Shown: positions 4,094-47,162 of the stretch, piece after piece
How positions within the stretch are numbered: position 1 is the first letter of the stretch
Layout of the letters: each line of letters opens with the position of its first letter
Source: Alphaproteobacteria bacterium
GTDB lineage: Bacteria > Pseudomonadota > Alphaproteobacteria > GCA-2731375
Length of the DNA stretch: 64,000 nt
NCBI GenBank assembly: GCA_041940205.1
Contig: JBGTSP010000001.1
Span: 245-64,244 of the forward strand
Reading direction: 5' to 3'
Position numbers and translations under genes: made by a program
The notes under the pieces: model-generated
What the model was told of the DNA's origin: nothing
Seen by the model: the letters and a program-made list of their open reading frames with translations, nothing else
Databases searched by the model: none

Positions 4094-4894
4094 TCAGTCC
4101 CGCGACGTGCGCAGGCGTTCGCGCTCCAGCCGCGCCTCGCGCAGCGCCTCGTAGCGTTTCTGCGCGGCCAGCCGGCGCTCGGTATAGACCCGGCGTCGCT
4201 CCTTGTGCCACAGGTCCATGATCTTCATGGCGTAGCTGCGTTTCCGGCTGCGGGTGGAGGAGTGATAGCGGCCCATGGCCTCGCTCCACGAGCGGGTCTC
4301 CTTGAACAGCCGGGTCAGCAGGTCGCCGGCATAGGCCACGTTCGAGGCCGGATCGAACGCGGTTTCGAGATCGTCGAAGGCATCGGGATGCCAGTGCAGG
4401 TTCACCTGCATGCAGCCGACGTCGATGTTGCGCACGCCCTTGCGCTTCAGCGCCCGGACTTCGCGGATGGCGCTCTGCTTGTCGCCGAAATAGCGCCCGC
4501 GCCCTTCGGCGTAGACCGTCCAGGGCCAGGGCCGGAGTTCCTTGCGTTTCTTGTCCCAGCGGCCCGACTCGGCGAGGCTGATGGCCGAGAGGAGCTGCGA
4601 GGGGATGCGCCGGGCGCGCTCTTCAAAGCTGATTGCGCTGCGGCACAGCAGGCCGTCATCGCCGGGCTTGCCGCCCTCGGTCGATGCCGCGGCGGGCAGG
4701 CCGGTCAGCAGGGCGGAAACGGCGATGGCGGCGAAGAGCGGGCCCGCCCGCGCGGCGGCGCGTGCCAGCATGGAACGCATCCGTTCGATCGCTTGCGTCA
4801 GCATGGCACGCATCATCCGGCCAGGCCCTTTCCACCGGGTTAACCATCTTCGCTTTCCGGTCGATTCCAGCATCATTCGTGCCAGCAGGGCCAC
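4094..4894 (-). CDS. Lytic transglycosylase (SLT-domain) protein with signal peptide
   Basis: N-terminal hydrophobic signal; SLT motif IPSQLLSAISLAESGR and conserved downstream AYN/Y region. Confidence 0.6.
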   Translation of the reverse strand: MALLARMMLESTGKRRWLTRWKGPGRMMRAMLTQAIERMRSMLARAAARAGPLFAAIAVSALLTGLPAAASTEGGKPGDDGLLCRSAISFEERARRIPSQLLSAISLAESGRWDKKRKELRPWPWTVYAEGRGRYFGDKQSAIREVRALKRKGVRNIDVGCMQVNLHWHPDAFDDLETAFDPASNVAYAGDLLTRLFKETRSWSEAMGRYHSSTRSRKRSYAMKIMDLWHKERRRVYTERRLAAQKRYEALREARLERERLRTSRD

Positions 4895-7123: not shown

Positions 7124-7200
7124 GGGTCCGTAGCTCAGTTGGTTAGAGCGCTGTCTTGACATGGCAGAGGTCACTGGTTCAAATCCAGTCGGACCCACCA
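7124..7200 (+). tRNA. tRNA-Val, anticodon GAC
   Basis: Cloverleaf folds by hand: acceptor GGGTCCG/CGGACCC, D-arm AGCTCAGTTGGTTAGAGC, anticodon stem CTGTC/GGCAG with loop TTGACAT, T-loop TTCAAAT, 3' CCA encoded. Confidence 0.9.
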
Positions 7201-7207
7201 CGTTTTT
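7152..7207 (+). repeat. attL: prophage attachment-site core (3' part of tRNA-Val plus about 8 nt)
   Basis: 56-bp stretch tgtcttgacatggcagaggtcactggttcaaatccagtcggacccaccacgttttt repeated at 47107-47162. Confidence 0.8.
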
Positions 7208-8420: not shown

Positions 8421-8677
8421 CCTTCCCTCTCCTCGCTGTCGGGCGCCGGATCGGCCGGCGCGGTTTTCTCCGCGCGGTCCTCGCGCGCGGTCCCGGCGGC
8501 CGCCAGACCATCCTCGTACTCGGCGACGGCCTCGACCGGGATCCGGATCATCCGACCGATCGTGAAGTGCCGCAACGTGCCCGCCCGGCAGCGGGCCAGC
8601 ACGGCGGATTTCGAGCAGGCCCAGCGCTCGGCGAGCAGCTCCGGGGTATAGGGGCGAGGCGGGAGGGCCATGGTCAT
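8228..8677 (-). CDS. xis: Excisionase / AlpA-like HTH DNA-binding protein (putative xis)
   Basis: N-terminal HTH LLAERWACSKSAVLARCRAGTLRHFTIGRMIRI; directly upstream of int; low-complexity C-terminal tail overlaps int 5' end by about 190 bp, so its true extent is uncertain. Confidence 0.5.
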   Translation of the reverse strand: MTMALPPRPYTPELLAERWACSKSAVLARCRAGTLRHFTIGRMIRIPVEAVAEYEDGLAAAGTAREDRAEKTAPADPAPDSEEREGWPGGSSSTAAPGAPPTPSKDAPSAEASASTPPPGRKPNGGSPNSVTQFPTFRQIRRPSPPSES

Positions 8678-9930
8678 GATTTCAGGCGAACGGCGTTCGT
8701 CGGGAACGCGTCGTGCAGGACGCCATCAAGCAGCCGTCCGGCCGCTCTCTTGCCGACCCGCTGGAAAGTCGCGTGGCTCTCGTCACTGGCGACAAAGGAC
8801 AGGCCGTCCTCCCATCTTGGATCGGCGTCGAAGTCCGCGGGGAACAGGTTGTGCTTGTCCTCGACGCGGCCGTTCTGGCTCTTCCAGTAGGGGGCGGCAT
8901 CCGGCTCCCACGGCAGCCACTCGCCGATCTGTTTCAGCAGAAACGGGATTCCGGCGCTGGCGCACTGGTCGCGAATCCCGCGCGGCCAGTCGGGATGCAT
9001 CGGCCGGGCGTTGCGCCCGCTCTCGCCGCCGGCGACGACCCAATGCAGGCCTTTGCCCGGTGCCTTGCGGAAGGTGCGGCAATCGCACTCGTGGCAGCTT
9101 TGCGACACCCCGCCTGTGTTCGGGCAGCGGGTAAAGCCGTGACCGTGGCCGCACTGGCAACCGGCCGGATAGCCCGCACGCACCCCTAGCAGATAGCGGT
9201 GCATGTCCACCGGCCCCAGCAACGGCTCAGCCGAAATCCAGCGAACGGATGCCGGCGTCGCCAGCAGTTCGGGGATGCGCAGATCGGCCGTCTTCTGATC
9301 CTCGACCGACGTGCCGAGCCAGACGTTCGGGAGCGGCCAGTCCCAGCCCATCGCCTTGCACCGACCGGCCTCGGTCCAGAGCTTTTCGTTTGAAGGATCG
9401 GCAAGACCAAACGCATCGAGGAAAGGCTCACAGGCCTCCTCAATACGGACCCGGCGGCCCGTCTCTTTGCCGGCGGGAATGTGAATGCGGCAGACTTCAC
9501 GGGCCGGCGTCCCCTGCCACTTTTCCTCAAACCATGAGCGCATCCGTTCCGGCCGTTTCGTCAGCACCTGGAACGTGTGCTGCGGACAGAGCGCCATCAT
9601 CGCGAAGATCCGGTCGATCCACTCGTCCTCGACCCAATCGCCGAAAAGGTCGGTCATCGAACACACGAAAACCCTCCGGGGCCGGCGCCAGCGAAGCGGC
9701 TGGGTGAGCGCCTTCTCGTCGAGGAACAGGTCCACCTTGGCCCTGTCCTGGGCGGCGAAGCGGATCGGGTTCTGGAAGCGCGCCTGCCAGTCCTCGGAGT
9801 AGCAGTTCCGACAGGCCTCGGACGCGTGAACGCAGTAGTGACCTACTTTGCCGGTTGCGCGGTTGCGTGCTCGGAGTGGGTTCCAGGTGGCGTCCGTCCA
9901 TTCGATCTTCGATCGTTCAGCCATCGGCAT
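8674..9930 (-). CDS. Phage Gp37/Gp68-family protein (DUF5131, radical-SAM-related) with C-terminal extension
   Basis: Signature N-terminus MAERSKIEWTDATWNPLRA, Cys cluster CVHASEACRNC, later CQCGHGHGF...CHECDC; start trimmed to MPMAERS (RBS-less internal Met of ORF 8674..10182). ATGA overlap with xis. Confidence 0.7.
   Translation of the reverse strand: MPMAERSKIEWTDATWNPLRARNRATGKVGHYCVHASEACRNCYSEDWQARFQNPIRFAAQDRAKVDLFLDEKALTQPLRWRRPRRVFVCSMTDLFGDWVEDEWIDRIFAMMALCPQHTFQVLTKRPERMRSWFEEKWQGTPAREVCRIHIPAGKETGRRVRIEEACEPFLDAFGLADPSNEKLWTEAGRCKAMGWDWPLPNVWLGTSVEDQKTADLRIPELLATPASVRWISAEPLLGPVDMHRYLLGVRAGYPAGCQCGHGHGFTRCPNTGGVSQSCHECDCRTFRKAPGKGLHWVVAGGESGRNARPMHPDWPRGIRDQCASAGIPFLLKQIGEWLPWEPDAAPYWKSQNGRVEDKHNLFPADFDADPRWEDGLSFVASDESHATFQRVGKRAAGRLLDGVLHDAFPTNAVRLKS
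8686..8700. repeat. GC palindrome family copy 1 (gGCGAACGGCGTTCGt)
   Basis: Perfect 13-bp core CGAACGGCGTTCG; 9 bp upstream of xis start / just past Gp37-like stop. Confidence 0.6.
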
Positions 9931-10525
9931 CGCCTCGCATTTCGACCGGTACCTTGATGGCGTCGAGGTGGGCGAACTCGCGAGGGTGCGGCAGGATGAT
10001 GAGCGTTTTTTCCGAGAACCATACGCCCGCGTTGGCGAACACACCCCAGTGCGCTTTGTAAATTGGTGCGCCCCTGGTGTGGCGGACCCAGATCTTTGTT
10101 CCGTCCCGCGGCGCTGCCTGGATAGGTTGCCAAGGTAAGCCGCTTCTATCGTCCTTCCCCTGTTCCGAGTGTCGATGCGCAACGGCCTCGCTCGCGAGCT
10201 GGTTGTTCTTGGCCGTCAAGCGATTCTCGACGGCCCTTTGAAGGTCGATCTGGCCTTCGGGACACGTGGTGGCCATCCGAAGTGCGCAGATCACCATGTC
10301 GGCAACGTATTTCTCGACGTCGCCGCGTACCGTGAGATTGGCCCAGTCCACGCCCCCGTGTTCGGCATCGTTGAGGATCGAGGCCAGTTTTCCACCAGCC
10401 TTGTGGACGTGCAGAAGAGCGTGCGCGAAGTCCTTGTGGGTCATGGGCGTCGCCCTGAAGTCCCGGTGATAGTGGCCCGTCCAGGGCAGGCCGCTCTGCA
10501 GCTCGCGGATGGTCCTGTCGCTCAT
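9917..10525 (-). CDS. Hypothetical phage protein, C-terminal DUF551-like domain
   Basis: 202 aa; C-terminus LPWQPIQAAPRDGTKIWVRHTRGAPIYKAHW resembles DUF551 of prophage proteins; overlaps neighbours. Confidence 0.4.
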   Translation of the reverse strand: MSDRTIRELQSGLPWTGHYHRDFRATPMTHKDFAHALLHVHKAGGKLASILNDAEHGGVDWANLTVRGDVEKYVADMVICALRMATTCPEGQIDLQRAVENRLTAKNNQLASEAVAHRHSEQGKDDRSGLPWQPIQAAPRDGTKIWVRHTRGAPIYKAHWGVFANAGVWFSEKTLIILPHPREFAHLDAIKVPVEMRGDADG

Positions 10526-12465
10526 TCTGATACCTCCTCGTTCTTAATCTCCCCGAGCCGGGCCCGAACCGTCTTTTCGTCGGCGAAGTGCAGCTCCGGC
10601 GGGATCCAGCCCTGGCGGCGGTCGGGGTGGTCGAGGATCCACTTGACCGCGTCGCCCTTCTTCATCGCGTCGATCTCCGCCTTGGTGGTGGCGGGATCGA
10701 GGCCGTCGATCGCCTGGATGGCGACGCGGGCGAGCTGGGGCTTCGTCAGGGCCTTGAGATAGGCCTCCTCTAGAGTCCAGTCCCCGGGCTGCACCGCGGT
10801 GTCCGCCACGCGGGCGATCGCCGGGATCAGCGGATGGTCGCCCAGGCCCGTGTCGTGGCCGTTCCAGCTGCCGACCTGGGTGGCGATCAGTGCCGCGAAG
10901 ATCCTGTGCAGGCGCTCCTCGTCTTCCAGCAGCCAGTCGAGGCAGGCGCTCCAGTCGAAGCCGCTCTTGAAGTCACCGTGATAGCGATCCGCATCGAGCC
11001 GGCAGGCCTCCGGCATCTGCTCGAGGAGGTCGATCAGGATCTGCTGCTGCAGCAGTGTGGGCTGGTGGTCGAAGCCGCCGATCGGGTCTTTCAGCAGCCG
11101 CACCGGGCTGCGGCGCAGCAGGCCGATCACCACCAGGGCCACCGGCAGCGCGCGGTTTTCGGTGCGGGCGAGTTCGAGCTGCAGGGTCCAGGTCTTGGTG
11201 TTGCGGGCCTGCTTCTGCAGGGCCTTGGGGATCGGATCCTTCGGCCTTGCGTCCGCCTTGACGGTGGCGGTGGCGTCGGCGCGCTTCGGCTTGATCAGGC
11301 CGGTGTGGACCTTCAGCATTCGGAAGCGGTTCAGCTCGATGATGACGCCGGCACCATCGGCCTTCTTGCCCTTCTCGAATTCTCCTGCCCAAAACGTCGA
11401 GTATGTCTCGGCGCCGTCGCGGATCTCCACCCAGGCCCAGCCCGCCGCGCGAAGCTCGCCGGCCTGTCGTTCGGCCTCGGCGACCTGTGCCAGTTTGAAG
11501 GCGTCGGCGTCCTGAAAATACTCGTTGCCGTCGCCGTCGTTGAAGATCTCCAGGCCGGATTCAATGACGTCGAAGGCCGCGCGATCGACGGGGATCATGT
11601 CTCCGGTGATCATCTCGGTGACATCCTTCTCGTCGACGTTCTGGCCCCACTCCCTTTGGGTCACGATCCGGTCGAGCACATCCGCCTGTCGCGTCTCGGG
11701 TGCTCGCGCGAGGGCGCGGGCCTGGGCCAGGTTGATCTCTCCGGTCGCTAGGGCCTGCTTCGCCGGATCGGACAGGCCGCGGCAGAGCTGCACGCGCTGC
11801 TGTACCCAGCGACGGGTGCGGCCGATCTTCCTGGCGAGGTCCTCGGTGTCGACGCCGGCGTCGACCGCCGCCGCGAGCGCCGCGGCCTCCTCCAGCGGGG
11901 GCACTTCCTCGCGCTGCAGGTTCTCCACGATCGCCATCATCACGACGTCCTGATCGCTCAGGTCCTCGATCCGGGCAGGCACCGGCCAGGTCTCGTCGAC
12001 CGTCTCGCCACGGACGTCGCCGGCGGCCTCGGCCAGGAAGCACAGGGCGCGGAAGCGCCTGGCGCCGGCGACGATCTCGAAACGCCCGGGCTCGGCCGCG
12101 GGGCGCAACAGCAGGTTCTGCAGCAGGCCTTGGGCCGCGATGCTGGCGGCGAGCTGCTCGATGCTGTCCGGATCGAAGCTCTTGCGGGGATTGAGCGGGC
12201 ACTCGACCAGGTCCCGCAGTATCACGCCGGCCGTCCCGTCCGCGGTCGCGGCGGGGACGGCCGGCGTTGGATCCACGCCGATCAGGGCGGCCGCGGTGAT
12301 GTCGAGCGCACCGGCGAGCTTCTCGACCTGTTCCAGGGTGGGGGAGACTGCGCCATCGCGGATCCGTCGGATCGTGTCCCGCGAGACGCCGGATGTTTTC
12401 TCGAGCGCGCGGTTGCTGAGGCTCTGCGCGTCCATCGTGCCGGCGAGGGTTGTGGCGATCGTCAT
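10522..12465 (-). CDS. HTH(XRE)-ParB/Srx N-domain fusion protein with about 350-aa uncharacterised C-terminal region
   Basis: Start chosen at ATG 12465 preceded by GGAGG; HTH LSNRALEKTSGVSRDTIRRIRDG...; ParB box FDPDSIEQLAASIAAQGLLQNLLLRP...FEIVAGARRFRA. Confidence 0.7.
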   Translation of the reverse strand: MTIATTLAGTMDAQSLSNRALEKTSGVSRDTIRRIRDGAVSPTLEQVEKLAGALDITAAALIGVDPTPAVPAATADGTAGVILRDLVECPLNPRKSFDPDSIEQLAASIAAQGLLQNLLLRPAAEPGRFEIVAGARRFRALCFLAEAAGDVRGETVDETWPVPARIEDLSDQDVVMMAIVENLQREEVPPLEEAAALAAAVDAGVDTEDLARKIGRTRRWVQQRVQLCRGLSDPAKQALATGEINLAQARALARAPETRQADVLDRIVTQREWGQNVDEKDVTEMITGDMIPVDRAAFDVIESGLEIFNDGDGNEYFQDADAFKLAQVAEAERQAGELRAAGWAWVEIRDGAETYSTFWAGEFEKGKKADGAGVIIELNRFRMLKVHTGLIKPKRADATATVKADARPKDPIPKALQKQARNTKTWTLQLELARTENRALPVALVVIGLLRRSPVRLLKDPIGGFDHQPTLLQQQILIDLLEQMPEACRLDADRYHGDFKSGFDWSACLDWLLEDEERLHRIFAALIATQVGSWNGHDTGLGDHPLIPAIARVADTAVQPGDWTLEEAYLKALTKPQLARVAIQAIDGLDPATTKAEIDAMKKGDAVKWILDHPDRRQGWIPPELHFADEKTVRARLGEIKNEEVSE

Positions 12466-12869
12466 CGGGTGTCCTCCAGGCTGGTGGTGTCCGGCATCCG
12501 GATCTGTTGCTGGAAAATCCGCACGGCGCTGCACCCGTGCCTGGTGATCCGCACGAGGGTGCGGTCGGTCCGCGCGAACGGGCCGCCACCGATCCGGGCG
12601 GCCCAGCCGCGCCGCTCGCAGGCGGCCAGGGCGTCGGGATCGCAGGTCGCCAGCGGCAGCGGACCCATCCAGAGGGCGTCGAGCAGGTCCTCGACGCCGG
12701 GATCGGGCTGTTCGCCCGGCCAGGGCAGGTGCGGGACCGGCGCGGGCGGGCGAAACAGGCGAACGGTGTTCGCCAGGGACGGCCGCCCGCTCACGCGCCT
12801 GGTTCCGCATTGCCGGGCGGCAGGCCGCCCAGGCCGAGGTCGATGCGCACCCGGGAAGCGCCGGGCCAC
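12462..12869 (-). CDS. Hypothetical protein, GTG start with AGGAGG SD
   Basis: 135-aa frame; strong SD 10 nt upstream of GTG at 12869; stop overlaps ParB-like start (ATGA); overlaps 3' end of upstream gene by 79 bp so uncertain. Confidence 0.3.
   Translation of the reverse strand: MARRFPGAHRPRPGRPAARQCGTRRVSGRPSLANTVRLFRPPAPVPHLPWPGEQPDPGVEDLLDALWMGPLPLATCDPDALAACERRGWAARIGGGPFARTDRTLVRITRHGCSAVRIFQQQIRMPDTTSLEDTR
12768..12784. repeat. GC palindrome family copy 2, variant GGCGAACggtGTTCGCC
   Basis: 7-bp arms with 3-nt centre; at 3' end of 12791..13375 gene. Confidence 0.5.
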
Positions 12870-13375
12870 CTGGCCTCGACCTCCTCGAGGGTGTCGACGC
12901 TGTTGATCAGGGTGAGGCGGCGCTCGCGGGCGGTGTTGTACTTCTTCCGCTCGGCCTCGACGGCCTTGCGCAGGCGGCGAAGAGCGGTGCGGGCGCCGGT
13001 GTCGAGATGGTCATGCAGATCCCGGCCCTTCAAGTCGTGGGGGATCGCGTACTCGATGTGCCATTCCTTCGGCAGCTTGATCTGGTGGTTCGGACTGTAC
13101 GACCGTTCGGGATCGAAGCTGATCTCCTTCATCGTCCGGGTGGCGCCGAACCGGCGCAGGACGCCAAGATCCCTGGGCCTGCAGAGCGTTTTGGCCAGGC
13201 GGTCCAGTTCGATGGCGGCATCCAGCACAAGCGCCATGATCGTCGGCGGCGGATCGCCGGCGCGGATCGCCAGGTCGAGAGCCTCCGGCTCCGCCTTCGC
13301 CATGTCCGCCAGCTTCCGCCGCAGCTTCTGGGTGAGGCGGACGGGACGGCGGGTGGTCGATTTCTTCGCGGTCAT
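12791..13375 (-). CDS. Hypothetical phage early protein
   Basis: Start trimmed to MTAKKSTTRRP; charged/helical; no recognisable domain. Confidence 0.45.
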   Translation of the reverse strand: MTAKKSTTRRPVRLTQKLRRKLADMAKAEPEALDLAIRAGDPPPTIMALVLDAAIELDRLAKTLCRPRDLGVLRRFGATRTMKEISFDPERSYSPNHQIKLPKEWHIEYAIPHDLKGRDLHDHLDTGARTALRRLRKAVEAERKKYNTARERRLTLINSVDTLEEVEARWPGASRVRIDLGLGGLPPGNAEPGA

Positions 13376-13729
13376 CGCGGGTTCACCAGCCGGAGAGGCG
13401 GGATCCGCGTTGCCGACGGATCCCGCCCCGGTACGAATAGCCCCGCAAGGAGCTTTGCCGCTGGTGCCTCTTGTGCCCGTGGGCCCAGGGCCCCGGGGTG
13501 CGGCCGATGCCCGGCCGCGGGCTGGGCGTCGATCGCCCGTCACCGCCCCGCGCTCAGGTGGGACGGGAAGGGGCGATCGGCTGATCTGAGTCGGCCTCCG
13601 GATCCGGGTGATCAGACCCATTGACGCTCCAGTCTCGGTAGACGTTCTCCGGGACAGCGCGGATCTCTTCGACATTCCGGACCCGGCCGAGGACCGGTGG
13701 CTTGGGCCTTCCGGATACGTCACCGGTCA

Positions 13730-14077
13730 TCACGCGGCCTCGCTGGCCGGGCCGTGGCCCAGCAGCTCGGCCGCGCGGGCGACGGCCGCGTCGCCCTGGG
13801 CGGTGAGCTCCTCGGGGCTGAAGCCGTCCAGCAGCAGGTCGGCCTTGGTGACGCACCGCGCGCCGAGGCGGACGCGCCGCTCGATCGCCTGGGCCATGCG
13901 CTCGACGAGGGCCGGCCCGCGCCAGCGGCGCACGCGCAGCCGGCAGTGCGCCGGGGCGGGCATCGCCTTCGGGGGCTGCGGCATCATCTTGCGCACCGCG
14001 GCATAGACCTCGGGCGGGATGCGGCTGTCGGTGGAGAGCTGTAGGAGATCGATCGGGTCGGGACGGGTGAGGGACAT
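13730..14077 (-). CDS. Hypothetical phage early protein
   Basis: 115-aa ORF, first gene of leftward operon; no recognisable domain. Confidence 0.4.
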   Translation of the reverse strand: MSLTRPDPIDLLQLSTDSRIPPEVYAAVRKMMPQPPKAMPAPAHCRLRVRRWRGPALVERMAQAIERRVRLGARCVTKADLLLDGFSPEELTAQGDAAVARAAELLGHGPASEAA

Positions 14078-14681
14078 GCGGGCCTCCGGTGATTGGGAGG
14101 CGAAAAATTTCCACAGAAGATATTTCTAAGTCAACTTATTATTTTTCCGTAGGGGACACACTGCTGCGCCATGGCGTGTAGTGATCAGCGAAATCCTTTC
14201 CGCTACGGAACGATTCACACCGCTCAACAGCCATTCTTTTTCGCGGAAAACTGCGGCATTGACTCCACTGCCGGCTTTGGGAAGGGTGATCGACGGTGGC
14301 GACGGTGTTCGCCCTTCCTCCGCCTCCGGCCAGGTCGCGTCCTGATAGCCGGCGGGGCGCGTTCTGCGCTTCGGAGTGCCGGCCTCTTGCCGGTTTCGTG
14401 GAGGAAGTCATGGCCGGCCCGAAGATCGTCTTCGTGCGATCCTACATCCGGTTCCGGTGGGGGAAGTGGGAGCATGTCTGCGCCCACTTCCGTAGTCCAC
14501 CGAGGCAACTGAGTTTGCCGTTCTGACAGTGTTCACGCGCTTCGGAACGGTGACTCAGTAGCAGCGAACGCCGTCGCCACTGCCGCCATCCTGACCATTC
14601 CACTGGCGCGGTCAAGCGCATGCATCGCGGTGCCAGCGCGCCGGCCCGTCGCGCACCGGGTGCGCGGAAATCGCGATCGTC

Positions 14682-14698
14682 GGCGAACGCCGTTCGCC
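14682..14698. repeat. GC palindrome family copy 3 GGCGAACGCCGTTCGCC
   Basis: Perfect 17-bp palindrome abutting cI stop codon. Confidence 0.6.
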
Positions 14699-15408
14699 TA
14701 GTCGGCCGATGTCATCGGGCCCAGGGGACGCTCCGGCCGGTAGGAGGCGATCACCAGGGCGATCACGTGGATGTCTTCAATCGTTGAAAAACCGCCGTTT
14801 TCGTCGTGGTTGGGATCCGGCCGGGGCAGCCGGATCGGCACCCGGTGCTCTGGATTCGATGATCGCGGGGAGAGCCAGAACTTGCCGTACTTGTCGACCA
14901 CGAACTCCTTCACCGTGGCCTCGTATTCGCCCAGGTTGTTGCGGCGCTGCACGATCACCCGCTCGCCCGGTTCGGGCCAGCGCTCCAGCTCCACCATCGG
15001 CACGACGATCAGGATCGTGCCGTCGGGATACACCTCGTCCATCGAATCGCCGCGCACGAGGAAGCCGGAGACCGTGTGGTGCGCCCAGCGATCGTCCACC
15101 GGGGCGGCGATCGCAAAGCGCTCGAGCACCGGCCATTCCACGGCCTCGGCCCAGTGGCCGGCCTGGACGGCGCCGCGCACGGTGATCGATCTCATCCCCG
15201 GCAAGTCGTAAACCGGGTCCTCCTCCTTCAGGAGGTCCGCCTGACGGACGCCCAAGGCAGGAGCGATTCGTTTCAGCCAGTCGACGCTGAGTCGAATCGC
15301 GCCCGTTTCGAGCTTTTGAATTTGCGCATCGGTCGTTCCGACGGCTTCGGCCAGTTTGGCAAGCGTGAGGCCGCGTTCCTTGCGCCACTCGCGGATTCGG
15401 TTGTCCAT
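14698..15408 (-). CDS. cI: CI-like prophage repressor: XRE HTH plus S24 (LexA/UmuD-like) self-cleaving peptidase domain
   Basis: MDNRIREWRKERGLTLAKLAEAVGTTDAQIQKLETG HTH; C-terminal S24 fold with Ser (GDSM) and Lys (KEFVV...K) dyad region; start trimmed from ORF 14698..15621. Confidence 0.85.
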   Translation of the reverse strand: MDNRIREWRKERGLTLAKLAEAVGTTDAQIQKLETGAIRLSVDWLKRIAPALGVRQADLLKEEDPVYDLPGMRSITVRGAVQAGHWAEAVEWPVLERFAIAAPVDDRWAHHTVSGFLVRGDSMDEVYPDGTILIVVPMVELERWPEPGERVIVQRRNNLGEYEATVKEFVVDKYGKFWLSPRSSNPEHRVPIRLPRPDPNHDENGGFSTIEDIHVIALVIASYRPERPLGPMTSAD

Positions 15409-15502
15409 TTCGGCATTATTTCCGACATGGAAATCAATGGGATACGCCCGGAAAACATTTTCTCCTTGACTTAAAATGTCTTGAGAGGAAATTTTTTGAG
15501 CC
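15409..15502. promoter_or_regulatory. Divergent cI/cro switch region with AT-rich inverted repeats (candidate operators) and -35-like TTGACT
   Basis: atttccGACATggaaat, gGAAAAcaTTTTCtcc, TTGACTtaaaatgtcTTGAGAgg between divergent cI and cro starts; GC far below flanks. Confidence 0.5.
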
Positions 15503-15760
15503 ATGACGTTACGCGACTGGCTCTCCGCCCGCTCCTGGAAACAGGTCGACCTCCGGCGCGCGCTCGCCGACGGGGGCTGCACCCTTTCAGCATCAACCAT
15601 CAATCGCCTCGTTGCCGGCACCCGTCTGCCGAACCTGGATACGGCGGCGGCGATCGCGCGGGTGACCCGGGGTGCGGTGATGCCGAACGATTTCTACGGC
15701 CTGCAGCCGGCCGGCCGGCCGGTCGCGCAACCCCCGACCCGAAACGAGGAGGCCGCCTGA
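15503..15760 (+). CDS. cro: Cro/YdaS-like HTH regulator
   Basis: 85 aa, divergent from cI; YdaS/Cro-like pattern QVDLRRALADGGCTLSASTINRLVAGTRLPNLDTAAAIARVTRGAV. Confidence 0.6.
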   Translation: MTLRDWLSARSWKQVDLRRALADGGCTLSASTINRLVAGTRLPNLDTAAAIARVTRGAVMPNDFYGLQPAGRPVAQPPTRNEEAA

Positions 15761-16311
15761 TGGGCAAGGTCACATCCATGCCGACACCTTCGCGCGCAAA
15801 GGCGGGTGGTGTCTCCCGGAACGGTGGCGGCGGGTTCCGGGGGCAGAAGCCCCGCGATCCCGGCGTGCCGAAAGACGCGATCGCCCGCCTGGTCGATGCC
15901 TGCGGCGGCGTCGGCCCGGTGCAGCGCATCCTGGGCAGCGGCAAGACGGTGACCTACGCCTGGACCGACCAGCAGGCGCCGGACGAGATCAGCTTCGCGC
16001 GCGTCGCCGCGCTCGAGGAAGCCTGCCGCACGGGGATCGCCGCGGCCTACCTGGCGCAGCTCGCCGGCGGGATCTACGTGCCGGCCGCGCCGGGCAATGC
16101 CGAGGGCGCGCTGCCGGCCTGCCTCGCCAGCCTGGGCAAGGAGATCGCGGACGTGTTCGCCCGCGGGGCGGAGGCCCTGGCGGACGGCGTGTGCGAACCG
16201 CACGAGGCCCGCGCCCTGCTGCGCGAGGTGCTGGAGGCGAACGGCGCACTCGGCGCGCTGATCGCCGCGCTCAACGAGATCGCCTATCCGGAAACGGAGG
16301 ACGCGGGATGA
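15760..16311 (+). CDS. CII-like phage regulatory protein (putative)
   Basis: Position after cro, start overlaps cro stop (TGATG); helical DNA-binding-like core DAIARLVDACGGVGPVQRILGSGKTVTYAW...ISFARVAALEEA. Confidence 0.4.
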   Translation: MGKVTSMPTPSRAKAGGVSRNGGGGFRGQKPRDPGVPKDAIARLVDACGGVGPVQRILGSGKTVTYAWTDQQAPDEISFARVAALEEACRTGIAAAYLAQLAGGIYVPAAPGNAEGALPACLASLGKEIADVFARGAEALADGVCEPHEARALLREVLEANGALGALIAALNEIAYPETEDAG

Positions 16312-18491: not shown

Positions 18492-19162
18492 CCCGGCAGA
18501 CCCGATCGGGCCGCGGCCAGCCCAGCGAGCCGGGCAGGGGCGGCCGTCCGAAATCCGATTTCTACGCGACGGACCCGGCGTACAGCAGCGCGCTGTTCGA
18601 GGCGCTCGCCTGGCGAAACCGGTTGCCGAAGAGCCTGTGGGAACCGGCCTGCGGCGACGGTGCGCTCGCCCGGGTGGCGGAGGCCTATGGCGTGACTGTG
18701 ATCGCCAGCAACCTGTACGGCCAGGGCTACGGCGAGGTCGGCGTCGATTTCTTGAAAGTCGAGAGCCTGGCCTGGCGATCGACGACGATCATCACCAATC
18801 CGCCCTGGTCGGGCCGGCGGGACAAGAACTTGCCGCTGCGCTTCCTGGAGCATGCCCAGCGGCTGGGGGCGAAGGAGATCTGGCTGCTGCTGCCGCTGGG
18901 CTGGATTGCCAGCGACTTCCGGCGGGAGCGGGTGTTCCCGGGCCTGGCCGATGTCTGGATCGTCAACAGCCGCGCGCCGATGTGGCCCTATGGCGTGGCG
19001 CCGCCGGATGCGCGGCCGAACCCGACGATGACGGAAGACTGCGCCTGGTTCGGCTGGCACGCAGGCGCGCGGTTCAGCGGGCCGCGGCTGGCTCTGATCG
19101 ATCCCGCGCCGGCCTATCAGGGTCGCGCCGGCGAACGGCGTTCGTCGGTAGAGGGGGCGTGA
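18488..19162 (+). CDS. Orphan N6-adenine DNA methyltransferase
   Basis: SAM motif I EPACGDG and catalytic motif IV NPPW; no adjacent restriction enzyme. Confidence 0.7.
   Translation: MTRQTRSGRGQPSEPGRGGRPKSDFYATDPAYSSALFEALAWRNRLPKSLWEPACGDGALARVAEAYGVTVIASNLYGQGYGEVGVDFLKVESLAWRSTTIITNPPWSGRRDKNLPLRFLEHAQRLGAKEIWLLLPLGWIASDFRRERVFPGLADVWIVNSRAPMWPYGVAPPDARPNPTMTEDCAWFGWHAGARFSGPRLALIDPAPAYQGRAGERRSSVEGA
19129..19149. repeat. GC palindrome family copy 4 ccgGCGAACGGCGTTCGtcgg
   Basis: Near-perfect 21-bp palindrome inside MTase 3' end, about 15 bp before stop. Confidence 0.6.
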
Positions 19163-20027: not shown

Positions 20028-20102
20028 GCATTCTATATCGGACGTTTTTGTCCGATTTCAAGGGACGGATCGGATTTTTTTATCCGATTTTTCGATCCCT
20101 GC

Positions 20103-20119
20103 GGCGAACGGCGTTCGCC
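20103..20119. repeat. GC palindrome family copy 5 GGCGAACGGCGTTCGCC
   Basis: Perfect 17-bp palindrome 12 bp upstream of CHC2 primase start. Confidence 0.6.
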
Positions 20120-20131
20120 GGCGGGGGCGCG

Positions 20132-24271: not shown

Positions 24272-26264
24272 ACCGGCTCCGTTCTATCCTGCCGCGGCGG
24301 TCGTGGCGGATGCGTTCGCTCTGCTCGAGGTGCCCGAGCGACTGAGCGTCAGCGAGGCGGCGGAGCGATACCGTGTCCTGGAGAACCGCGGCGGCGGCGT
24401 CTCCGGGCCCTGGACGTTCGACCTGCTGCCGTTCCTGCGGCGGCCGATGGACTGTCTTGGACCGGACAACAGCTACGCCACGGTGGCGGTGATCGGACCT
24501 GCCCAGACGGGCAAGTCGTCAATCGGCGACAACTGGCTGCTCTACTCGGCGATTTGCGATCCGGCGGACATGCTGATGCTGGGGCCGGACAAGGCGATCA
24601 TGCGGGACTACTCGGTCTCGCAGATCGACCGCATGGTGAGATCGTGCCCGGAGCTGCGCCGCCGTCTGCGGCCGGTGCCGAGCGCGGACAACATCTTCTC
24701 GAAGCTGTTCCAGGGGATGGCGTTCTTCATCGCCTGGCCGGTGGCGAGCCAGTTGCGGGCGCGACCGGTACCGCGGTGCCGGATCGATGATTACGACGCG
24801 GTGCCAGAGGACATCGATGGCGAGGGCAACGCCCTGGTGCTGATGTCCGGCCGACAGACGACGTTCGAGGGATTCGAGAAGACCTACGTGAACTCCTCGC
24901 CGGCGCTTGGCGCCGACCGGGGGATCGAGGCTGTCGTGGCCTCGGGCACGGACGAGCGATGGACGGTGCGCTGCCTGCAGTGCGATCACCCGTTCGCGCT
25001 CGACTGGGATCACGTGAGTTACCACGCAACCGGGACGCCGGAAGAGGCTGCCGAGAGCGTGTGCGTGGTCTGCCCGGACTGCGGTCACCCGCATGCACCG
25101 GGCGACAAGCGGAAGCTGATGGCCCGTGGCGCCTATGTCGGCGCCGGCCAGGAGATGCAGCCGGACGGCAGGATCGTCGGGGAACTTCGTCGCACGTCGA
25201 TCGCGTCGTTCCGCTGGGACGGCCTTATCGGTCTCGCAAGCTGGGGTCGCCTGGCCGAGCTGGCGCGTCGGGCCGAGCAGACGTTCGAGGCGACGCAGGA
25301 CGAGGACGAGCTGCGGGCCTTCATGACCGCGCGAGTCGGCCGGAACTTCGTCTCCCGCCTGGCGGGGGCGAAGCCGGTCACGTCGGATGCCCTGGTCGCC
25401 CGCGCCGAGGCGGGCGGTCATGTTCCGGGTGAGGTGCCGGATTGGGCGATCTGCCTGACGGCGGCCGTCGACGTCCAGGCCAACCGGTTCGAGGTCATGG
25501 TCATGGCCTGGGGACCGGGCCTGGAAGCGGCAATCGTCGATCGGTTTCCGATCCTGGCCCTCGAGGACGGAACGGAAGCGATGGATCCCGCCGGCCGGGT
25601 CGAGCACTGGGCGGTGCTGCTGCCCAAGGTGATGCTGAGGCGCTACCCGGTGGCCGGTCAGCCGCACCGGTCGCTCGCGATCGTCAACACGGCGATCGAC
25701 ACTGGCGGACTGGAAGGCGTGACCGACAACGCCTTCAGCTTCTGGCACACGGTCTATGGCAGCCGAGGGCGCGCCGGCCTGACCTCGCTGACGCTGGTGA
25801 AGGGCGGCAGCAATCCGAGGGGCCGGATGCTGCCGCCGCCGACCGTCGACACGAAGCGGCGACTGAAGGGGCATCCGGACCCCGAGCTGTTCGTGCCGAA
25901 CGTGAACCGGGTGAAGGACATGTTGAACGGCCGTCTCCACCGCGAGGAGCCGGGCCCGCTGTTCCTTCACCTGCCGCGGGGCATGGAGCCCACGCATATC
26001 GCGGAACTGACGGCCGAGCAGAAGGTGAACGGGCTCTGGGTCCGCAAACCGGGCGAGGCCAACGAGACATGGGATCTGTGGGTCTACAACGCCGTGGCGC
26101 TGATGCGCCATGGCGCGTCCGACCCGACTCTGAACTGGGTGCCTGACTGGGCCCGGCCGCAAGACAAGCCGGCCGGCGAACCGCGTTCGCCGGAAATCGA
26201 GGTCAAACAGGTGCGCGCGGGGCCGCGGCGGAAGCTGCGGACACGGGTGCGAGGGAGACGCTGA
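24255..26264 (+). CDS. Terminase large subunit, lambda gpA family
   Basis: 669 aa; gpA-family layout with ATPase Walker A GPAQTGKS and C-terminal nuclease; start trimmed to MQPQPE. Confidence 0.9.
   Translation: MQPQPEPAPFYPAAAVVADAFALLEVPERLSVSEAAERYRVLENRGGGVSGPWTFDLLPFLRRPMDCLGPDNSYATVAVIGPAQTGKSSIGDNWLLYSAICDPADMLMLGPDKAIMRDYSVSQIDRMVRSCPELRRRLRPVPSADNIFSKLFQGMAFFIAWPVASQLRARPVPRCRIDDYDAVPEDIDGEGNALVLMSGRQTTFEGFEKTYVNSSPALGADRGIEAVVASGTDERWTVRCLQCDHPFALDWDHVSYHATGTPEEAAESVCVVCPDCGHPHAPGDKRKLMARGAYVGAGQEMQPDGRIVGELRRTSIASFRWDGLIGLASWGRLAELARRAEQTFEATQDEDELRAFMTARVGRNFVSRLAGAKPVTSDALVARAEAGGHVPGEVPDWAICLTAAVDVQANRFEVMVMAWGPGLEAAIVDRFPILALEDGTEAMDPAGRVEHWAVLLPKVMLRRYPVAGQPHRSLAIVNTAIDTGGLEGVTDNAFSFWHTVYGSRGRAGLTSLTLVKGGSNPRGRMLPPPTVDTKRRLKGHPDPELFVPNVNRVKDMLNGRLHREEPGPLFLHLPRGMEPTHIAELTAEQKVNGLWVRKPGEANETWDLWVYNAVALMRHGASDPTLNWVPDWARPQDKPAGEPRSPEIEVKQVRAGPRRKLRTRVRGRR
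26174..26194. repeat. GC palindrome family copy 6, variant ccGGCGAACcgcGTTCGCCgg
   Basis: 9-bp arms around CGC; in TerL 3' end about 70 bp before stop. Confidence 0.55.
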
Positions 26265-29619: not shown

Positions 29620-30387
29620 ATGACCACACTCGCTGCCGACAAGCCGCGCAGCTTTCACGTCGGGGAATTCCTCGACCTGCCGGTGATCGCGTCCGACCGC
29701 ATCTACCAGGGCGCCGCCGTTGGCGACAACGGATCGGGCTACATGCGCCCGCTGCAGTCCGGCGATCCGTTCCGTGGCTTCGCCGACTTCGGTGTCGACA
29801 ACAGCTCCGGCTCGGCCGGCGACAAGGACGTTCGCCTGCGCCAGAAGGGGCTGGCGACGTTGTCCATCTCCGGTGTCGCGATCACCGACGTCGGCCGGCC
29901 GGTCTATGCGACGGACGACGACACCTTCGTCCTGACCGGCGCCGGTACCAAGGTTGGCCGTGTTGCCGCCTACGTGTCGTCCGGCGTCGCGCTGGTGGAA
30001 TTCGACGCCCGCGGCCTGGAGGAGGCGGTCAAGGAGTGGGTGATCCCGATCTCCCTGGCCACGATCACCGGCGCCGGCGACGTCCTCTCCGCCCATACCC
30101 CGGGCCACTGGGGTCGCGTCCTCTCGCTGGACTTCTTCGTCGGTACGCCGGTCACCACGGCCGCGAAGCTGGCGACGCTGAACGCGGAGATCGGCGCGAC
30201 CAACCTGACGGGCGGCACGGTCGCCCTGACGTCGGCCAACTGCACGCCGCTCGGCGCGAAGGTCGCCGGCGCGGCCGTGACCGCGGCCAACGTGTTCGGG
30301 CCCAGCGACACGATCTCGATCGAGGCCGCCAGCGTCACCGCGTTCGCCGAGGGCGACGGCGCGCTGATCGTTCGCCTGGGCTTCTGA
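29620..30387 (+). CDS. Head structural protein at decoration-protein (gpD) position
   Basis: 255 aa G/A/T/V-rich beta-type protein between protease/scaffold and major capsid; assignment by synteny only. Confidence 0.4.
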   Translation: MTTLAADKPRSFHVGEFLDLPVIASDRIYQGAAVGDNGSGYMRPLQSGDPFRGFADFGVDNSSGSAGDKDVRLRQKGLATLSISGVAITDVGRPVYATDDDTFVLTGAGTKVGRVAAYVSSGVALVEFDARGLEEAVKEWVIPISLATITGAGDVLSAHTPGHWGRVLSLDFFVGTPVTTAAKLATLNAEIGATNLTGGTVALTSANCTPLGAKVAGAAVTAANVFGPSDTISIEAASVTAFAEGDGALIVRLGF

Positions 30388-30402
30388 GCGAACGCCGTTC
30401 GC
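30388..30402. repeat. GC palindrome family copy 7 GCGAACGCCGTTCGC
   Basis: Perfect 15-bp palindrome starting 1 bp after stop of 29620..30387. Confidence 0.6.
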
Positions 30403-30473
30403 CACCCTTCCCGTGACCCCGGCGCCATGGAGCGCCTCATGGCCCGTCGGGCCGAGACAAGGAGACCCCCACA

Positions 30474-33595: not shown

Positions 33596-33751
33596 ATGTC
33601 CAGCGAACGCCGTTCGCCGAAGAAGACGCTTGCCCGCCGCACCGGGGGCAGCACCACGATCGAGCAGCCGCCGCCGGCGCCGGTCGAGGCCGACGACGAC
33701 AAGCCGGCCGCGGCGCCGCCTCGCAAGCGCAAGGCCGCGGCGGCCGACTGA
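33596..33751 (+). CDS. Small basic protein (51 aa), uncertain
   Basis: GAGAGG RBS; palindrome GCGAACGCCGTTCGC sits at codons 3-7; may be non-coding. Confidence 0.25.
   Translation: MSSERRSPKKTLARRTGGSTTIEQPPPAPVEADDDKPAAAPPRKRKAAAAD
33603..33617. repeat. GC palindrome family copy 8 GCGAACGCCGTTCGC
   Basis: Perfect 15-bp palindrome 27 bp after gpU-position stop. Confidence 0.6.
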
Positions 33752-34973: not shown

Positions 34974-35590
34974 TGGCCCTGCTGACGCGCGCGGGCGCGA
35001 CCGAACGGGTGGAACCGGCCGACCAGGCCGAACTGCCCGAAGACGATCGGGTGTCCTACCTGATCGCGCATCCGACCGAAGCCCTCCGGGACGCCTGGCA
35101 GCGGGACATCGCCAGGCGGACCGCCCGGCTGACGGCCGAGCTGGGAATCGACGAGGGCCTGAAGGTTCGCCTGCAGGGTGATCTCGTCTCGTTGGCGCGG
35201 GAAGAGATCGGCCGCCTGGTCGACCCCTCCCAGCATGGAACGCTGTTCGAGGTGCTGGATGCCTGGGCCGAGCATCTCGAGGAAAACCCCGACGGGGCGG
35301 CGTTGCCCGAGGACCTGTCCGAGGAGATCGGCCAGGTGCAGTCGTTCCTGCGCCGGAACTCCGACATCTGGCAGGACGCCGAGGAGGACAACGGCCTGAT
35401 GGTCGGGGTGATGATCGACTCGGCTGTCGCGCGGTTCGTGCTGGAGATCGAAAATGGTCCGCCGGCGAACCGCGTTCGCGGGCGTCTCACGGCCGAGACG
35501 CTTGATGCGATCCCCGACGCGCACAAGGGCGAGATCTACGCCGCCGCGATGCGGCTTCTCCGGCCCACGGAGCAAGAGGCAAAAAACTGA
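34973..35590 (+). CDS. Tail assembly chaperone (gpG analogue)
   Basis: Acidic 205-aa protein between major tail and TMP ending at slippery A_AAA_AAC. Confidence 0.65.
   Translation: MALLTRAGATERVEPADQAELPEDDRVSYLIAHPTEALRDAWQRDIARRTARLTAELGIDEGLKVRLQGDLVSLAREEIGRLVDPSQHGTLFEVLDAWAEHLEENPDGAALPEDLSEEIGQVQSFLRRNSDIWQDAEEDNGLMVGVMIDSAVARFVLEIENGPPANRVRGRLTAETLDAIPDAHKGEIYAAAMRLLRPTEQEAKN
35465..35479. repeat. GC palindrome family copy 9, variant GCGAACcgcGTTCGC
   Basis: Inside gpG-analogue, about 100 bp upstream of slippery site. Confidence 0.5.
35581..35587 (+). promoter_or_regulatory. Programmed -1 ribosomal frameshift slippery heptamer A_AAA_AAC
   Basis: X_XXY_YYZ heptamer in G frame 3 nt before its stop; the -1 frame continues open to 35940. 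Confidence 0.6.
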
Positions 35591-44574: not shown

Positions 44575-45077
44575 ACGCTGCAATCGATGCCCTCGAGGCC
44601 CGCCGGGCCCTAGATCCCCACCGACGTCTCTCGAAGAACTTCACCCTGCGCGAGGCCATGCGCAGCCAGCTCGCACTGCGCCACGGGATCGACAACTGCC
44701 CCTCGGCCGAGCTGGTGCCGGCGCTCGAGGCCGTGGCCGCACACGTGTTGCAGCCGGTGCGGGACTTCTACGCCCGGCCCTTCACACCCTCGAGCTGGTA
44801 CCGGTGTCTCGACCTCAATCGCCGCCTCGGCAGCCGCGACAGCAGCCAGCACGTGCGCGGCCAGGCGGTGGATTTCGAGGTGCCGGGGATCTCAAACGTT
44901 GAGGTCGCCATGTGGTGTCGCGACCGTCTCGAGACCTTCGACCAGCTGATCCTCGAGTTCCACACGCCCGGCGATGCGACGAGCGGCTGGGTGCACTGCA
45001 GCTGGGTGAGCCCGGCCGACAACCGCGGCGAGGTTCTCACCATCTCGGCGAACGGCGTTCGCCGGGGATTGCCCTGA
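44571..45077 (+). CDS. Endolysin, peptidase M15 (zinc D-Ala-D-Ala carboxypeptidase-like) family
   Basis: Zn-binding motifs SQHVRGQAVDF and ...LILEFH plus D; start trimmed to MNAAIDAL. Confidence 0.75.
   Translation: MNAAIDALEARRALDPHRRLSKNFTLREAMRSQLALRHGIDNCPSAELVPALEAVAAHVLQPVRDFYARPFTPSSWYRCLDLNRRLGSRDSSQHVRGQAVDFEVPGISNVEVAMWCRDRLETFDQLILEFHTPGDATSGWVHCSWVSPADNRGEVLTISANGVRRGLP
45047..45063. repeat. GC palindrome family copy 10 GGCGAACGGCGTTCGCC
   Basis: Perfect 17-bp palindrome 15 bp before endolysin stop. Confidence 0.6.
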
Positions 45078-45679: not shown

Positions 45680-45879
45680 GGCGAACCGGGTTCGCGCCAT
45701 CGGATCACCCTGCTAGTATGGGTGTCGGGCGATTTGCTCGGCGCCTTCCTGGTCGGAGTTGATACCGTCAGGGGAGTATCCCTGTTCACCGGCTTAGAAA
45801 CGGGGTCAGGGATTCTCGACGCCGCGTGTATCGAATCCGCCCAACGACATTTCCCGGCGTCGGCCGGGATGGAGGATAG

Positions 45880-47106: not shown

Positions 47107-47162
47107 TGTCTTGACATGGCAGAGGTCACTGGTTCAAATCCAGTCGGACCCACCACGTTTTT
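47107..47162 (+). repeat. attR: duplicated 3' end of tRNA-Val (no 5' half)
   Basis: Identical 56 bp to 7152-7207; no acceptor 5' arm upstream. Confidence 0.8.

Follow-up and report, generated by a model that had tools for sequence, protein, structure and literature searches.

We analyzed a 64,000-nucleotide stretch of an alphaproteobacterial genome (assembly GCA_041940205.1, contig JBGTSP010000001.1, positions 245 to 64,244), hereafter the window, which holds a 40-kb temperate prophage (7152-47162) at a tRNA-Val gene in a GC-rich bacterial genome. Our subject is a prophage gene at 10522-12465 on the minus strand. Its product joins an N-terminal XRE-type helix-turn-helix (HTH) to a ParB cytidine triphosphate (CTP)-binding domain (D1), a ParB-type HTH (D2), and a long C-terminus homologous to the D3 and D4 domains of HerB, a protein of the F-plasmid leading region. 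Comparison across independent mobile elements indicates that this protein reads a 15-bp palindrome dispersed over the prophage.

Gene, domains, and HerB homology

The open reading frame (ORF) spans 648 codons including the stop and encodes a 647-aa product. The original prediction was right about the start and its ribosome-binding site, while its length of 648 aa counted the stop codon. The ATG lies at 12465 with GGAGGacacccg just 5' of it, providing GGAGG at a spacer of 7 nt. The stop of a small upstream ORF overlaps the parB-like ATG (cccgATGAcg), and the parB-like stop overlaps the ATG of the next gene (gaATGAgc), which encodes a 202-aa protein of PHROG 27761. Because of these ATGA overlaps with both neighbors, we consider the gene an internal, translationally coupled member of an operon.

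Pfam placed HTH_3 at aa 13-58 (E 8.4e-6; 26.2 bits against a cut-off of 23), ParB_N (PF02195) at aa 84-184 (E 4e-16), and HTH_ParB (PF17762) at aa 187-270 (E 4e-10). The NCBIfam model parB_part scored 90.9 bits, above its cut-off of 58.45; PRTRC_parB and Noc were the top NCBIfam matches, yet both stayed under their own cut-offs. These hits confirmed the XRE HTH and the ParB box that had been called from the sequence alone, and the peptide cited for the latter, FDPDSIEQLAASIAAQGLLQNLLLRP...FEIVAGARRFRA, was found in the translation. D1 (11914-12216, minus strand) contains LLQNLLLRP, GARRFRA, and ENLQRE; its Box I is LAASIAAQGLLQNLLLRP, its Box II GARRFRA, and its Box III ENLQRE. D2 (11656-11907, minus strand) has the recognition helix IGRTRRWVQQRVQL, with the signature RWVQQRV. 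Sequence matches in the PDB spanned aa 74-290 and included Spo0J (E 2.7e-24), Noc, the ParB proteins of Caulobacter, Bacillus, and Myxococcus, and KorB. Foldseek matched D1-D2 to Noc, Spo0J, ParB, and KorB, and the ParB-type HTH to the DNA-binding domains of ParB-parS, Noc-NBS, and KorB-operator structures at 2.4-3.3 Å. The D1 motifs together with the adjacent ParB-type HTH assign the product to the ParB/Srx CTPase superfamily of the ParB, Noc, and KorB type. The AlphaFold2 (AF2) models, which were monomers, had a mean predicted local distance difference test (pLDDT) score of 90.3 for the full-length protein and 89.7 for the C-terminus modeled alone, with flexible linkers at aa 66-80 (low pLDDT) and 400-413.

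No Pfam or PHROG match was obtained for aa 280-647, and a bDLD3 Pfam match (E 0.07) was dismissed as noise. The models resolved an alpha/beta domain, D3 (aa ~277-400; 11266-11637, minus strand; pLDDT >90), and a helical domain, D4 (aa ~414-640; 10546-11226, minus strand), with a terminal four-helix module that carries a KKGD motif. The structure search proposed as a check on the C-terminus gave a confident fold and no match among solved structures (best Foldseek E against the PDB 1.5), while in BFVD it matched large viral ParBs alone. The closest relatives were 30-37% identical, and several aligned end to end. A profile of seven C-termini, used in an exhaustive search, matched 2,429 protein clusters at E<=1e-3, of which 329 reached E<=1e-30. 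In nearly all cases the match ran from position ~200-300 to ~600 of a 560-800-aa protein, which places it after a ParB D1-D2. A tblastn search of plasmids returned at least 5,000 records, and most among the matches listed were conjugative Enterobacterales plasmids. The listed matches from E. coli F-type plasmids were a 652-aa 'ParB/RepB/Spo0J' gene, situated in the inspected record between ssb and psiB in the leading region.

This 652-aa leading-region protein is YfjB/ParB2 (PMC8406263), which was renamed HerB by Virolle et al. (bioRxiv July 2026, PMC13370423). In that study D1 is a CTP-binding ParB domain (D1D2 crystal structure with CTPgammaS) and D2 a ParB HTH, D3 and D4 are described as novel domains, and D4 forms a domain-swapped, V-shaped dimerization dome with nucleoid or non-specific DNA association (PMC13370423). 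Nucleoid foci of HerB require the HTH and CTP binding (HTH, R94, E130); the protein bound 156 chromosomal regions that yielded no motif, did not bind the plasmid itself, and reprogrammed host transcription (PMC13370423). The same authors counted 429 homologues on plasmids, and their phage homologues were three, in cyanophages (PMC13370423).

The window-family profile matched HerB at E 1.3e-16 (hmmsearch). Aligned by hhalign, the window-family C-termini matched HerB and three relatives at 99.2% probability (E 1.6e-19) with 313 colinear columns over D3-D4, covering template columns 22-433 of 441. BLAST paired window aa 80-358 with HerB 37-322, which comprises D1, D2, and the start of D3, at 30% identity. 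Judged by BLAST and hhalign, whereas the HerB authors used jackhmmer, each of the four domains reached the published HerB threshold of at least 80% coverage (PMC13370423), with D1 borderline at ~81%. The helical D4 with its four-helix end also agrees with the published description of HerB D4. By these comparisons the 370-aa C-terminus is homologous to, and colinear with, D3 and D4 of YfjB/HerB; the original prediction had taken its last 350 aa to be unrecognizable.

Box I and Box III are intact, which is consistent with the earlier suggestion of a KorB-like CTP switch. In Box II, Ala135 replaces the catalytic-candidate Glu of GERR. This residue aligns with chain position 92 of Caulobacter ParB (6t1f), which corresponds to E102 after a shift by 10 (the Gln of QPR being Q58). 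The Caulobacter E102A mutant binds CTP and entraps DNA, does not hydrolyze CTP, and is clamp-locked, with release ~15-fold slower (PMC8367383). Because Ala135 falls on E102 and E102A is hydrolysis-dead, slow or absent CTP hydrolysis is a reasoned prediction for the window protein, with GARR as the putative natural equivalent of the clamp-locked mutant. Ala occupied this position in the window protein alone among the eight closest full-length relatives; elsewhere in the family the residue was Y, N, S, H, or G. The GERR Glu was repeatedly replaced in mobile-element ParBs (L012, L014, L022, L054, and L007, in our numbering of homologue loci), giving GYRR, GNRR, GSRR, GHRR, and, in F HerB, GGRR. 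P-motif 1 was NPR instead of QPR throughout these mobile-element homologues.

The N-terminal head (aa 1-65; 12271-12465, minus strand) has five helices at pLDDT 95-98 and matched C.BclI, C.AhdI, and DdrO in Foldseek at a root-mean-square deviation of 0.9-1.5 Å. With this fold and an HTH_3 score above the gathering cut-off, it belongs to the XRE/Cro-C1 HTH family. Kinship with the prophage CI or Cro, which would have implied shared operators, was rejected, as the similarity was merely generic. The fusion had been described as unusual, which overstated its rarity. A local jackhmmer search seeded with aa 1-70 found an XRE-like HTH upstream of ParB_N in 55/183 family proteins, and Pfam detected HTH_3 in a dozen of the top 41 homologues; the XRE fusion is recurrent and a common architecture in the family (~30% of sampled members).

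The segment encoding the linker between the XRE head and ParB_N (12224-12267, minus strand) is a near-perfect 44-bp palindrome with 21-nt arms that are 90% complementary, and its minus-strand RNA is predicted to fold into a very stable hairpin (-48.4 kcal/mol, z -6.8). A GUG codon (Val81) directly follows the hairpin, whose 3' arm holds a Shine-Dalgarno-like GGGACGG. This hairpin may mark an internal start for an XRE-less isoform or a gene-fusion scar. Its 14-mer ACGCCGGCCGTCCC was rejected as a dispersed family, with 49 matches against 43 expected.

The dispersed palindrome and its candidate reader

The palindrome emerged from a search for repeated dyads as GGCGAACG-N-CGTTCGCC. The core GCGAACNNNGTTCGC (GCGAAC-N3-GTTCGC) occurred exactly 9 times in the window against 0.02 expected, always inside the prophage, and the 17-mer palindrome with up to 3 mismatches occurred 12 times against 2.56 expected, a count that 0/100 shuffles reached. 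The dispersed palindrome family noticed earlier is therefore real. Its full 15-bp form is GCGAACG-N-CGTTCGC (also written GCGAACGNCGTTCGC or GGCGAACGGCGTTCGCC). Counting exact copies and near-matches, there are eleven good sites, from 8685 to 45696; every one falls within the prophage, and none was found in 24 kb of host flank.

Eight of the eleven sites are within ~35 bp of a start or stop codon. Site 1, GGCGAACGGCGTTCGTC (8685-8701), is just upstream of the xis start. Site 2 (12758-12774) is ~300 bp upstream of the parB-like start, in an intergenic gap of the same operon, and site 3 (14682-14698) abuts the cI stop codon. Site 4 (19130-19146), with one mismatch, falls at a gene 3' end; site 5 (20103-20119) is divergent intergenic, 13 bp upstream of the primase gene; and site 6 (26175-26191) is at the 3' end of a 653-aa P-loop gene (24303-26264) that is terminase-large-like by position. 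Further right, site 7 (30387-30403) directly follows a stop codon upstream of the next structural gene, site 8 (33602-33618) is at the start of a small ORF, site 9 (35464-35480) in a gene 3' region, site 10 (45047-45063) at a gene junction, and site 11 (45680-45696) directly after a stop codon. Beside site 5, an unusually AT-rich stretch (20068-20131; gatcggatttttttatccgatttttcgat) in the divergent gap ahead of the genes for primase and primase-helicase could be a promoter or a replication origin.

We compared the window with a first set of loci fetched solely because they encode a homologue of its ParB-like protein. Exact core copies were present in L001 (seven), L010 (five), L011 and L012 (four each), and L009 (one), and absent from L002-L008. 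By tblastx, L001 has no other gene in common with the window save a weak DUF5131 match. The second set consisted of 80 viral contigs encoding ParB D1-D2 relatives. When these were split a priori by a hidden Markov model of the C-terminus, the exact site occurred in 11/15 positive and 4/65 negative loci. The D2 alignment showed that each site-bearing locus encodes the recognition helix R-[HFYW]-[VI]-Q-[QLK]-R-[LVI] or a near variant. Across 87 distinct ParB loci, exact sites were found in 17/21 helix-positive loci vs 3/66 others (Fisher p ~1e-11), an association that is descriptive because the helix pattern was defined post hoc; the three exact-site loci outside the pattern carry near-variant helices. 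With the core relaxed to CGAAC-N3-GTTCG, three of the four loci that were helix-positive and exact-site-negative gained sites, and the helix-negative viral loci held 1 site in 977 kb against 0.99 expected. Many loci had their sites at -21 to -34 from the parB start or no more than a few hundred bp from it. A reverse scan with the site returned 120 stretches, among which such a ParB was encoded in 5/24 multi-site viral stretches vs 2/96 single-site stretches, counts that are lower bounds since the stretches cover just parts of contigs.

Several relatives lacking the XRE head carry the same palindrome (P0004 in L011, and those in L014, L020, L033, and L060), and the site consensus is identical in loci with and without the head. 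For these reasons the palindrome is probably read by the ParB HTH D2 instead of the XRE head, and the earlier suggestion that the extra HTH alters specificity found no favor in the comparison. A second motif flanking the palindromes was searched for as an XRE target, and none was found. The co-occurrence of sites with the D2 helix across independent elements indicates that the window protein reads the dispersed palindrome, and so lends comparative support to its original designation as the candidate reader.

Homologues occupied varied mobile settings. In the metagenomic prophages L002 and L012 they lay between an integrase and cI/cro-like regulators, and in an Azospirillum sp. Sh1 prophage (L001, L010) their neighbors were DUF5131 and DNA methylase genes. 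L009 has one where an Arenibaculum prophage meets the host, and L005 one in a plasmid leading region with ArdC. ParA was absent within ~10 kb of parB in 16-17 of 19 site-positive loci. In the metagenomic element L011 (8556-8611 and 8627-11228), a ParA gene is directly upstream of, and overlaps, the gene for the full-length XRE-less HerB-like ParB P0004, and two palindromes stand 30-70 bp upstream of parA. By that arrangement, at least one clade member resembles a classical parABS locus. The 54.9-kb L008 (NZ_CP029360.1, Azospirillum thermophilum 'plasmid unnamed5', no palindrome copy) encodes terminase, tail tube, tape measure, and lysozyme proteins alongside RepA, two integrases, and a 701-aa XRE-ParB-D3 protein with no accompanying ParA, and it looks like a phage or phage-plasmid. 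In the F-type plasmid pSF-468-1 (L007), the leading region has three copies of a different dyad, GCGACCG-N3-CGGTCGC, at 4436, 7699, and 13093, which may belong to the single-stranded DNA promoter (Frpo/ssi) repeats.

Prophage setting and early operon

The tRNA-Val gene is at 7124-7200, and its last 56 nt recur at 47107-47162. This repeat of the tRNA-Val 3' end at both edges set the prophage limits at 7152-47162, with attL at 7152-7207 and attR at 47107-47162, both on the plus strand by repeat comparison. From left to right, the early region encodes an integrase, Xis (HTH_17), DUF5131, the 202-aa protein, the ParB-like protein, and three small genes. A 620-bp gap separates these from CI (HTH_3 + Peptidase_S24), a divergent Cro-like HTH, and CII (CP76), beyond which lie a gene for a protein resembling deoxynucleoside monophosphate phosphatase, a primase, and a primase-helicase. 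The parB-like gene thus sits between the CI-type repressor and Xis/Int on their strand, with the Cro and CII homologues divergent. Flanking the cI region, two AT-rich segments (14103-14134, minus strand, and 15466-15496 in the cI-cro intergenic region) are inverted copies (23 nt, 83%) with a TTGACT -35-like hexamer. By sequence and position they resemble PL and PR of the lambda type, with operators that are related, 14103-14134 being the putative PL region. Since these copies occupy the lambda PL/PR positions, the earlier term 'early-left operon' is a reasonable reading of the locus, with the promoter role itself a prediction. A scan of 12400-15800 for sigma-70 promoters and intrinsic terminators found none. 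The deviant Walker-A motif of ParA, KGGxGK[ST], was absent from every frame of the window, in keeping with the earlier statement that no ParA partner is encoded.

Within the 620-bp gap, from the cI stop to the putative PL, a 22-nt inverted repeat (86%; 14291-14312 and 14564-14585) has arms 251 bp apart, each with a palindrome half-site (GCGAACGCCGT and ACGGTGTTCGC). Two genes downstream of the parB-like gene is the DUF5131 (phage Gp37/Gp68) gene (8674-9930, minus strand), whose product has a large insertion, given 418 aa against a 243-position profile. DUF5131 has the same position, two genes after the ParB-like gene, in Azospirillum sp. Sh1-type prophages (L001 13467-14402; L010 12810-13745), where a C5 DNA methylase follows.

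Mechanism, alternatives, and related systems

With moderate confidence, we propose that the gene encodes a phage-borne CTP clamp of the HerB branch of ParB. It would load at palindromes on the phage genome itself and serve there, in cis, as a genome-wide organizer or transcription modulator. Palindrome binding, CTP clamp behavior, slow hydrolysis, expression timing, and biological role are all inferred in the scheme that follows. Two monomers would be joined through the C-terminal D4, and each flexible 'leg' would consist of the CTP-binding ParB N-domain, the ParB HTH, and, in this sub-family, the extra XRE HTH. The ParB HTH would recognize GCGAACG-N-CGTTCGC, present in 11 copies on the phage genome and mostly at gene boundaries, and by analogy with ParB, KorB, and BisD these palindromes may act as loading sites. 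CTP-induced engagement of the N-domains would close the dimer into a sliding clamp that spreads over neighboring phage DNA. With a GARR Box II, clamps are predicted to bind CTP and hydrolyze it poorly, and so to stay long on DNA. Given the position of the gene in a PL-type leftward early operon, the protein would be expected right after infection or induction, acting in cis. Its role would be that of a KorB-like genome-wide organizer or transcription modulator and not that of a ParA-driven partition adaptor.

Several points weigh against this proposal, beginning with the post hoc definition of the helix pattern. The case for palindrome binding is one of co-occurrence, and L008 and L016 encode a similar helix with no site in the sequenced DNA compared. 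Shared host ancestry of the metagenomic loci could contribute to the association; against this, sites are lacking in high-GC loci whose helices differ, and L054, a locus of 50% GC, has two. As family members vary at the position of the Box II Glu, loss of this Glu may be neutral. HerB has no motif and bound the host chromosome, not the plasmid, so the family precedent is trans action on the host (PMC13370423). The placement of eight sites at gene ends would also fit an RNA-level element, and the proposal gives no account of what the XRE HTH does.

A more elaborate version of the proposal envisages a phage KorA/KorB-like circuit on the HerB scaffold, in which a hydrolysis-deficient (GARR) clamp loaded at the eleven sites would coat or silence the whole phage genome early after entry, with the XRE HTH as a KorA-like latch or a second reading head. 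We put this forward as a tentative idea. If it is true, the clade supplies the loading site that the HerB family has so far lacked, and genome-wide regulation in cis is a use to which phages put ParB-type clamps.

The family precedent suggests instead a HerB-like host reprogrammer that works early and mainly in trans on the chromosome of the host, associating broadly with the nucleoid via D4 and its HTHs and remodeling host transcription and metabolism, with the palindromes secondary (autoregulation) or unrelated. The colinear D1-D4 homology speaks for it, as does an early-operon position analogous to the zygotically induced leading region, and HerB itself occupies 156 motif-less chromosomal regions and not its own plasmid (PMC13370423). 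We nevertheless judge it unlikely: the eleven cognate-looking sites are on the phage while 24 kb of host flank has none, presence of the site follows the ParB helix from element to element, and HerB has the helix RHVQRML in a setting, the F leading region, without the site.

A partition protein would treat the palindromes as parS-like sites and segregate an extrachromosomal form of the phage, be it a phage-plasmid stage or replicating genomes, via a host ParA or SMC, or would have lost its ParA. Dispersed centromere sites are known in phage N15. The close full-length relative P0004 directly downstream of ParA, with its two palindromes upstream of parA, favors this idea, as do the relative on the Azospirillum thermophilum replicon with RepA and phage structural genes and the parB_part score above cut-off. 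Against it, the prophage has an integrase, Xis, and intact 56-bp att repeats; the window holds no ParA motif, as most site-positive loci hold no ParA within ~10 kb; and the protein lacks the C-terminal domain of canonical ParB, with neither ParB_C nor KorB_C matched in Pfam. Given integration and the lack of ParA, classical partition is the least plausible of the three roles first suggested (silencing, partition, and anti-defense), and we regard it as improbable here.

Equally hard to credit is a reading in which a host factor, another phage protein, or RNA hairpins account for the palindromes, the ParB link reflects common phage descent, and the protein has a role such as anti-defense or nuclease: sites near start and stop codons, a 7-bp GC-rich stem possible at each site, and nucleases such as Osa among ParB/Srx folds (cited in PMC13370423) are in its favor, but an RNA hairpin need not keep the same sequence in elements without other common genes, the 15-bp dyad is the size of ParB, KorB, and Noc sites, the sites cluster at parB 5' regions, their presence follows the recognition helix and not the C-terminus or XRE head, no T-tract terminator signature accompanies them, and intact CTP-binding motifs do not suggest a nuclease.

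ParB-type CTP clamps are turning up well beyond chromosome segregation, in Noc, KorB, BisD, VirB, and HerB. The ParB CTPase fold was already known, as were the HerB D3-D4 domains since July 2026. New here are a temperate-phage clade of HerB-like ParB, which carries the family beyond plasmids into many temperate phages of GC-rich bacteria, the recurrent XRE fusion, and a conserved palindrome dispersed on the element as candidate cognate site, a testable DNA-loading site for the HerB family. The natural Box II variants (GARR, GYRR, GNRR, GGRR) are available for study of the role of CTP hydrolysis.

Among NCBIfam models, the PRTRC-system ParB (TIGR03734), a ~555-aa ParB with a long C-terminus, was the best match (E 1.4e-37); it scored 129.5 against a cut-off of 278.6, however, and the neighbors of the window gene are phage genes, with no PRTRC partner genes nearby. 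Spo0J, Caulobacter ParB, and Noc gave the best sequence and fold matches for aa 74-290 and share Boxes I-III and a 14-16-bp dyad site. Like a ParABS replicon, the prophage carries palindromic centromere-like sites, 11 candidates in all, but these are dispersed over the element and not clustered. The window protein further differs from canonical ParB in its lack of ParA and of the canonical C-terminal domain, in GARR instead of GERR, and in an N-terminal XRE HTH where ParB has its ParA-stimulating peptide.

As far as its description goes, BisD of ICEclc is a ParB-like CTP clamp that activates distant promoters (PMC12409273), and on that description it is a functional analogue: a mobile-element ParB-like CTP clamp for gene regulation without a partition role. 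KorB of RK2, a CTP-dependent sliding clamp and global repressor with KorA, has the ParB-type D1-D2 (PDB 8qa8/8qa9), needs no ParA for regulation, and has about a dozen palindromic operators over a 40-60 kb genome, some at promoters and others distant. The small HTH repressor KorA cooperates with that clamp, whereas in the window protein the XRE HTH is fused in cis; a KorA-like function for it is speculation. The KorB matches were limited to D1-D2 with no KorB_C Pfam match, the operator sequence differs, and RK2 also encodes IncC/ParA, while no separate KorA was identified in the prophage.

HerB, a conserved leading-region protein of many resistance plasmids, is the closest parallel in architecture. 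Both proteins have four colinear domains (D1 ParB CTP-binding, D2 ParB HTH, D3, and D4) and no ParA partner, both are encoded, in the window gene's case by prediction, among the earliest genes expressed on element entry or activation, and both have a Box II without Glu (GGRR in HerB, GARR here) and NPR as P-motif 1. Their contexts are analogous, with the window gene in a prophage PL-type early operon and HerB in a zygotically induced plasmid leading region. Identity is just ~28-30%; the window protein has the extra N-terminal XRE HTH, and HerB has a coiled-coil insertion in D3 that is missing here. They also differ in their sites: the window element has a clear cognate-looking palindrome, whereas HerB has no motif and does not bind F. 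The prophage clade combines the four-domain scaffold with a conserved 15-bp palindrome on its own genome, and so makes the question of DNA loading and specificity, for which HerB has yielded no motif, directly testable.

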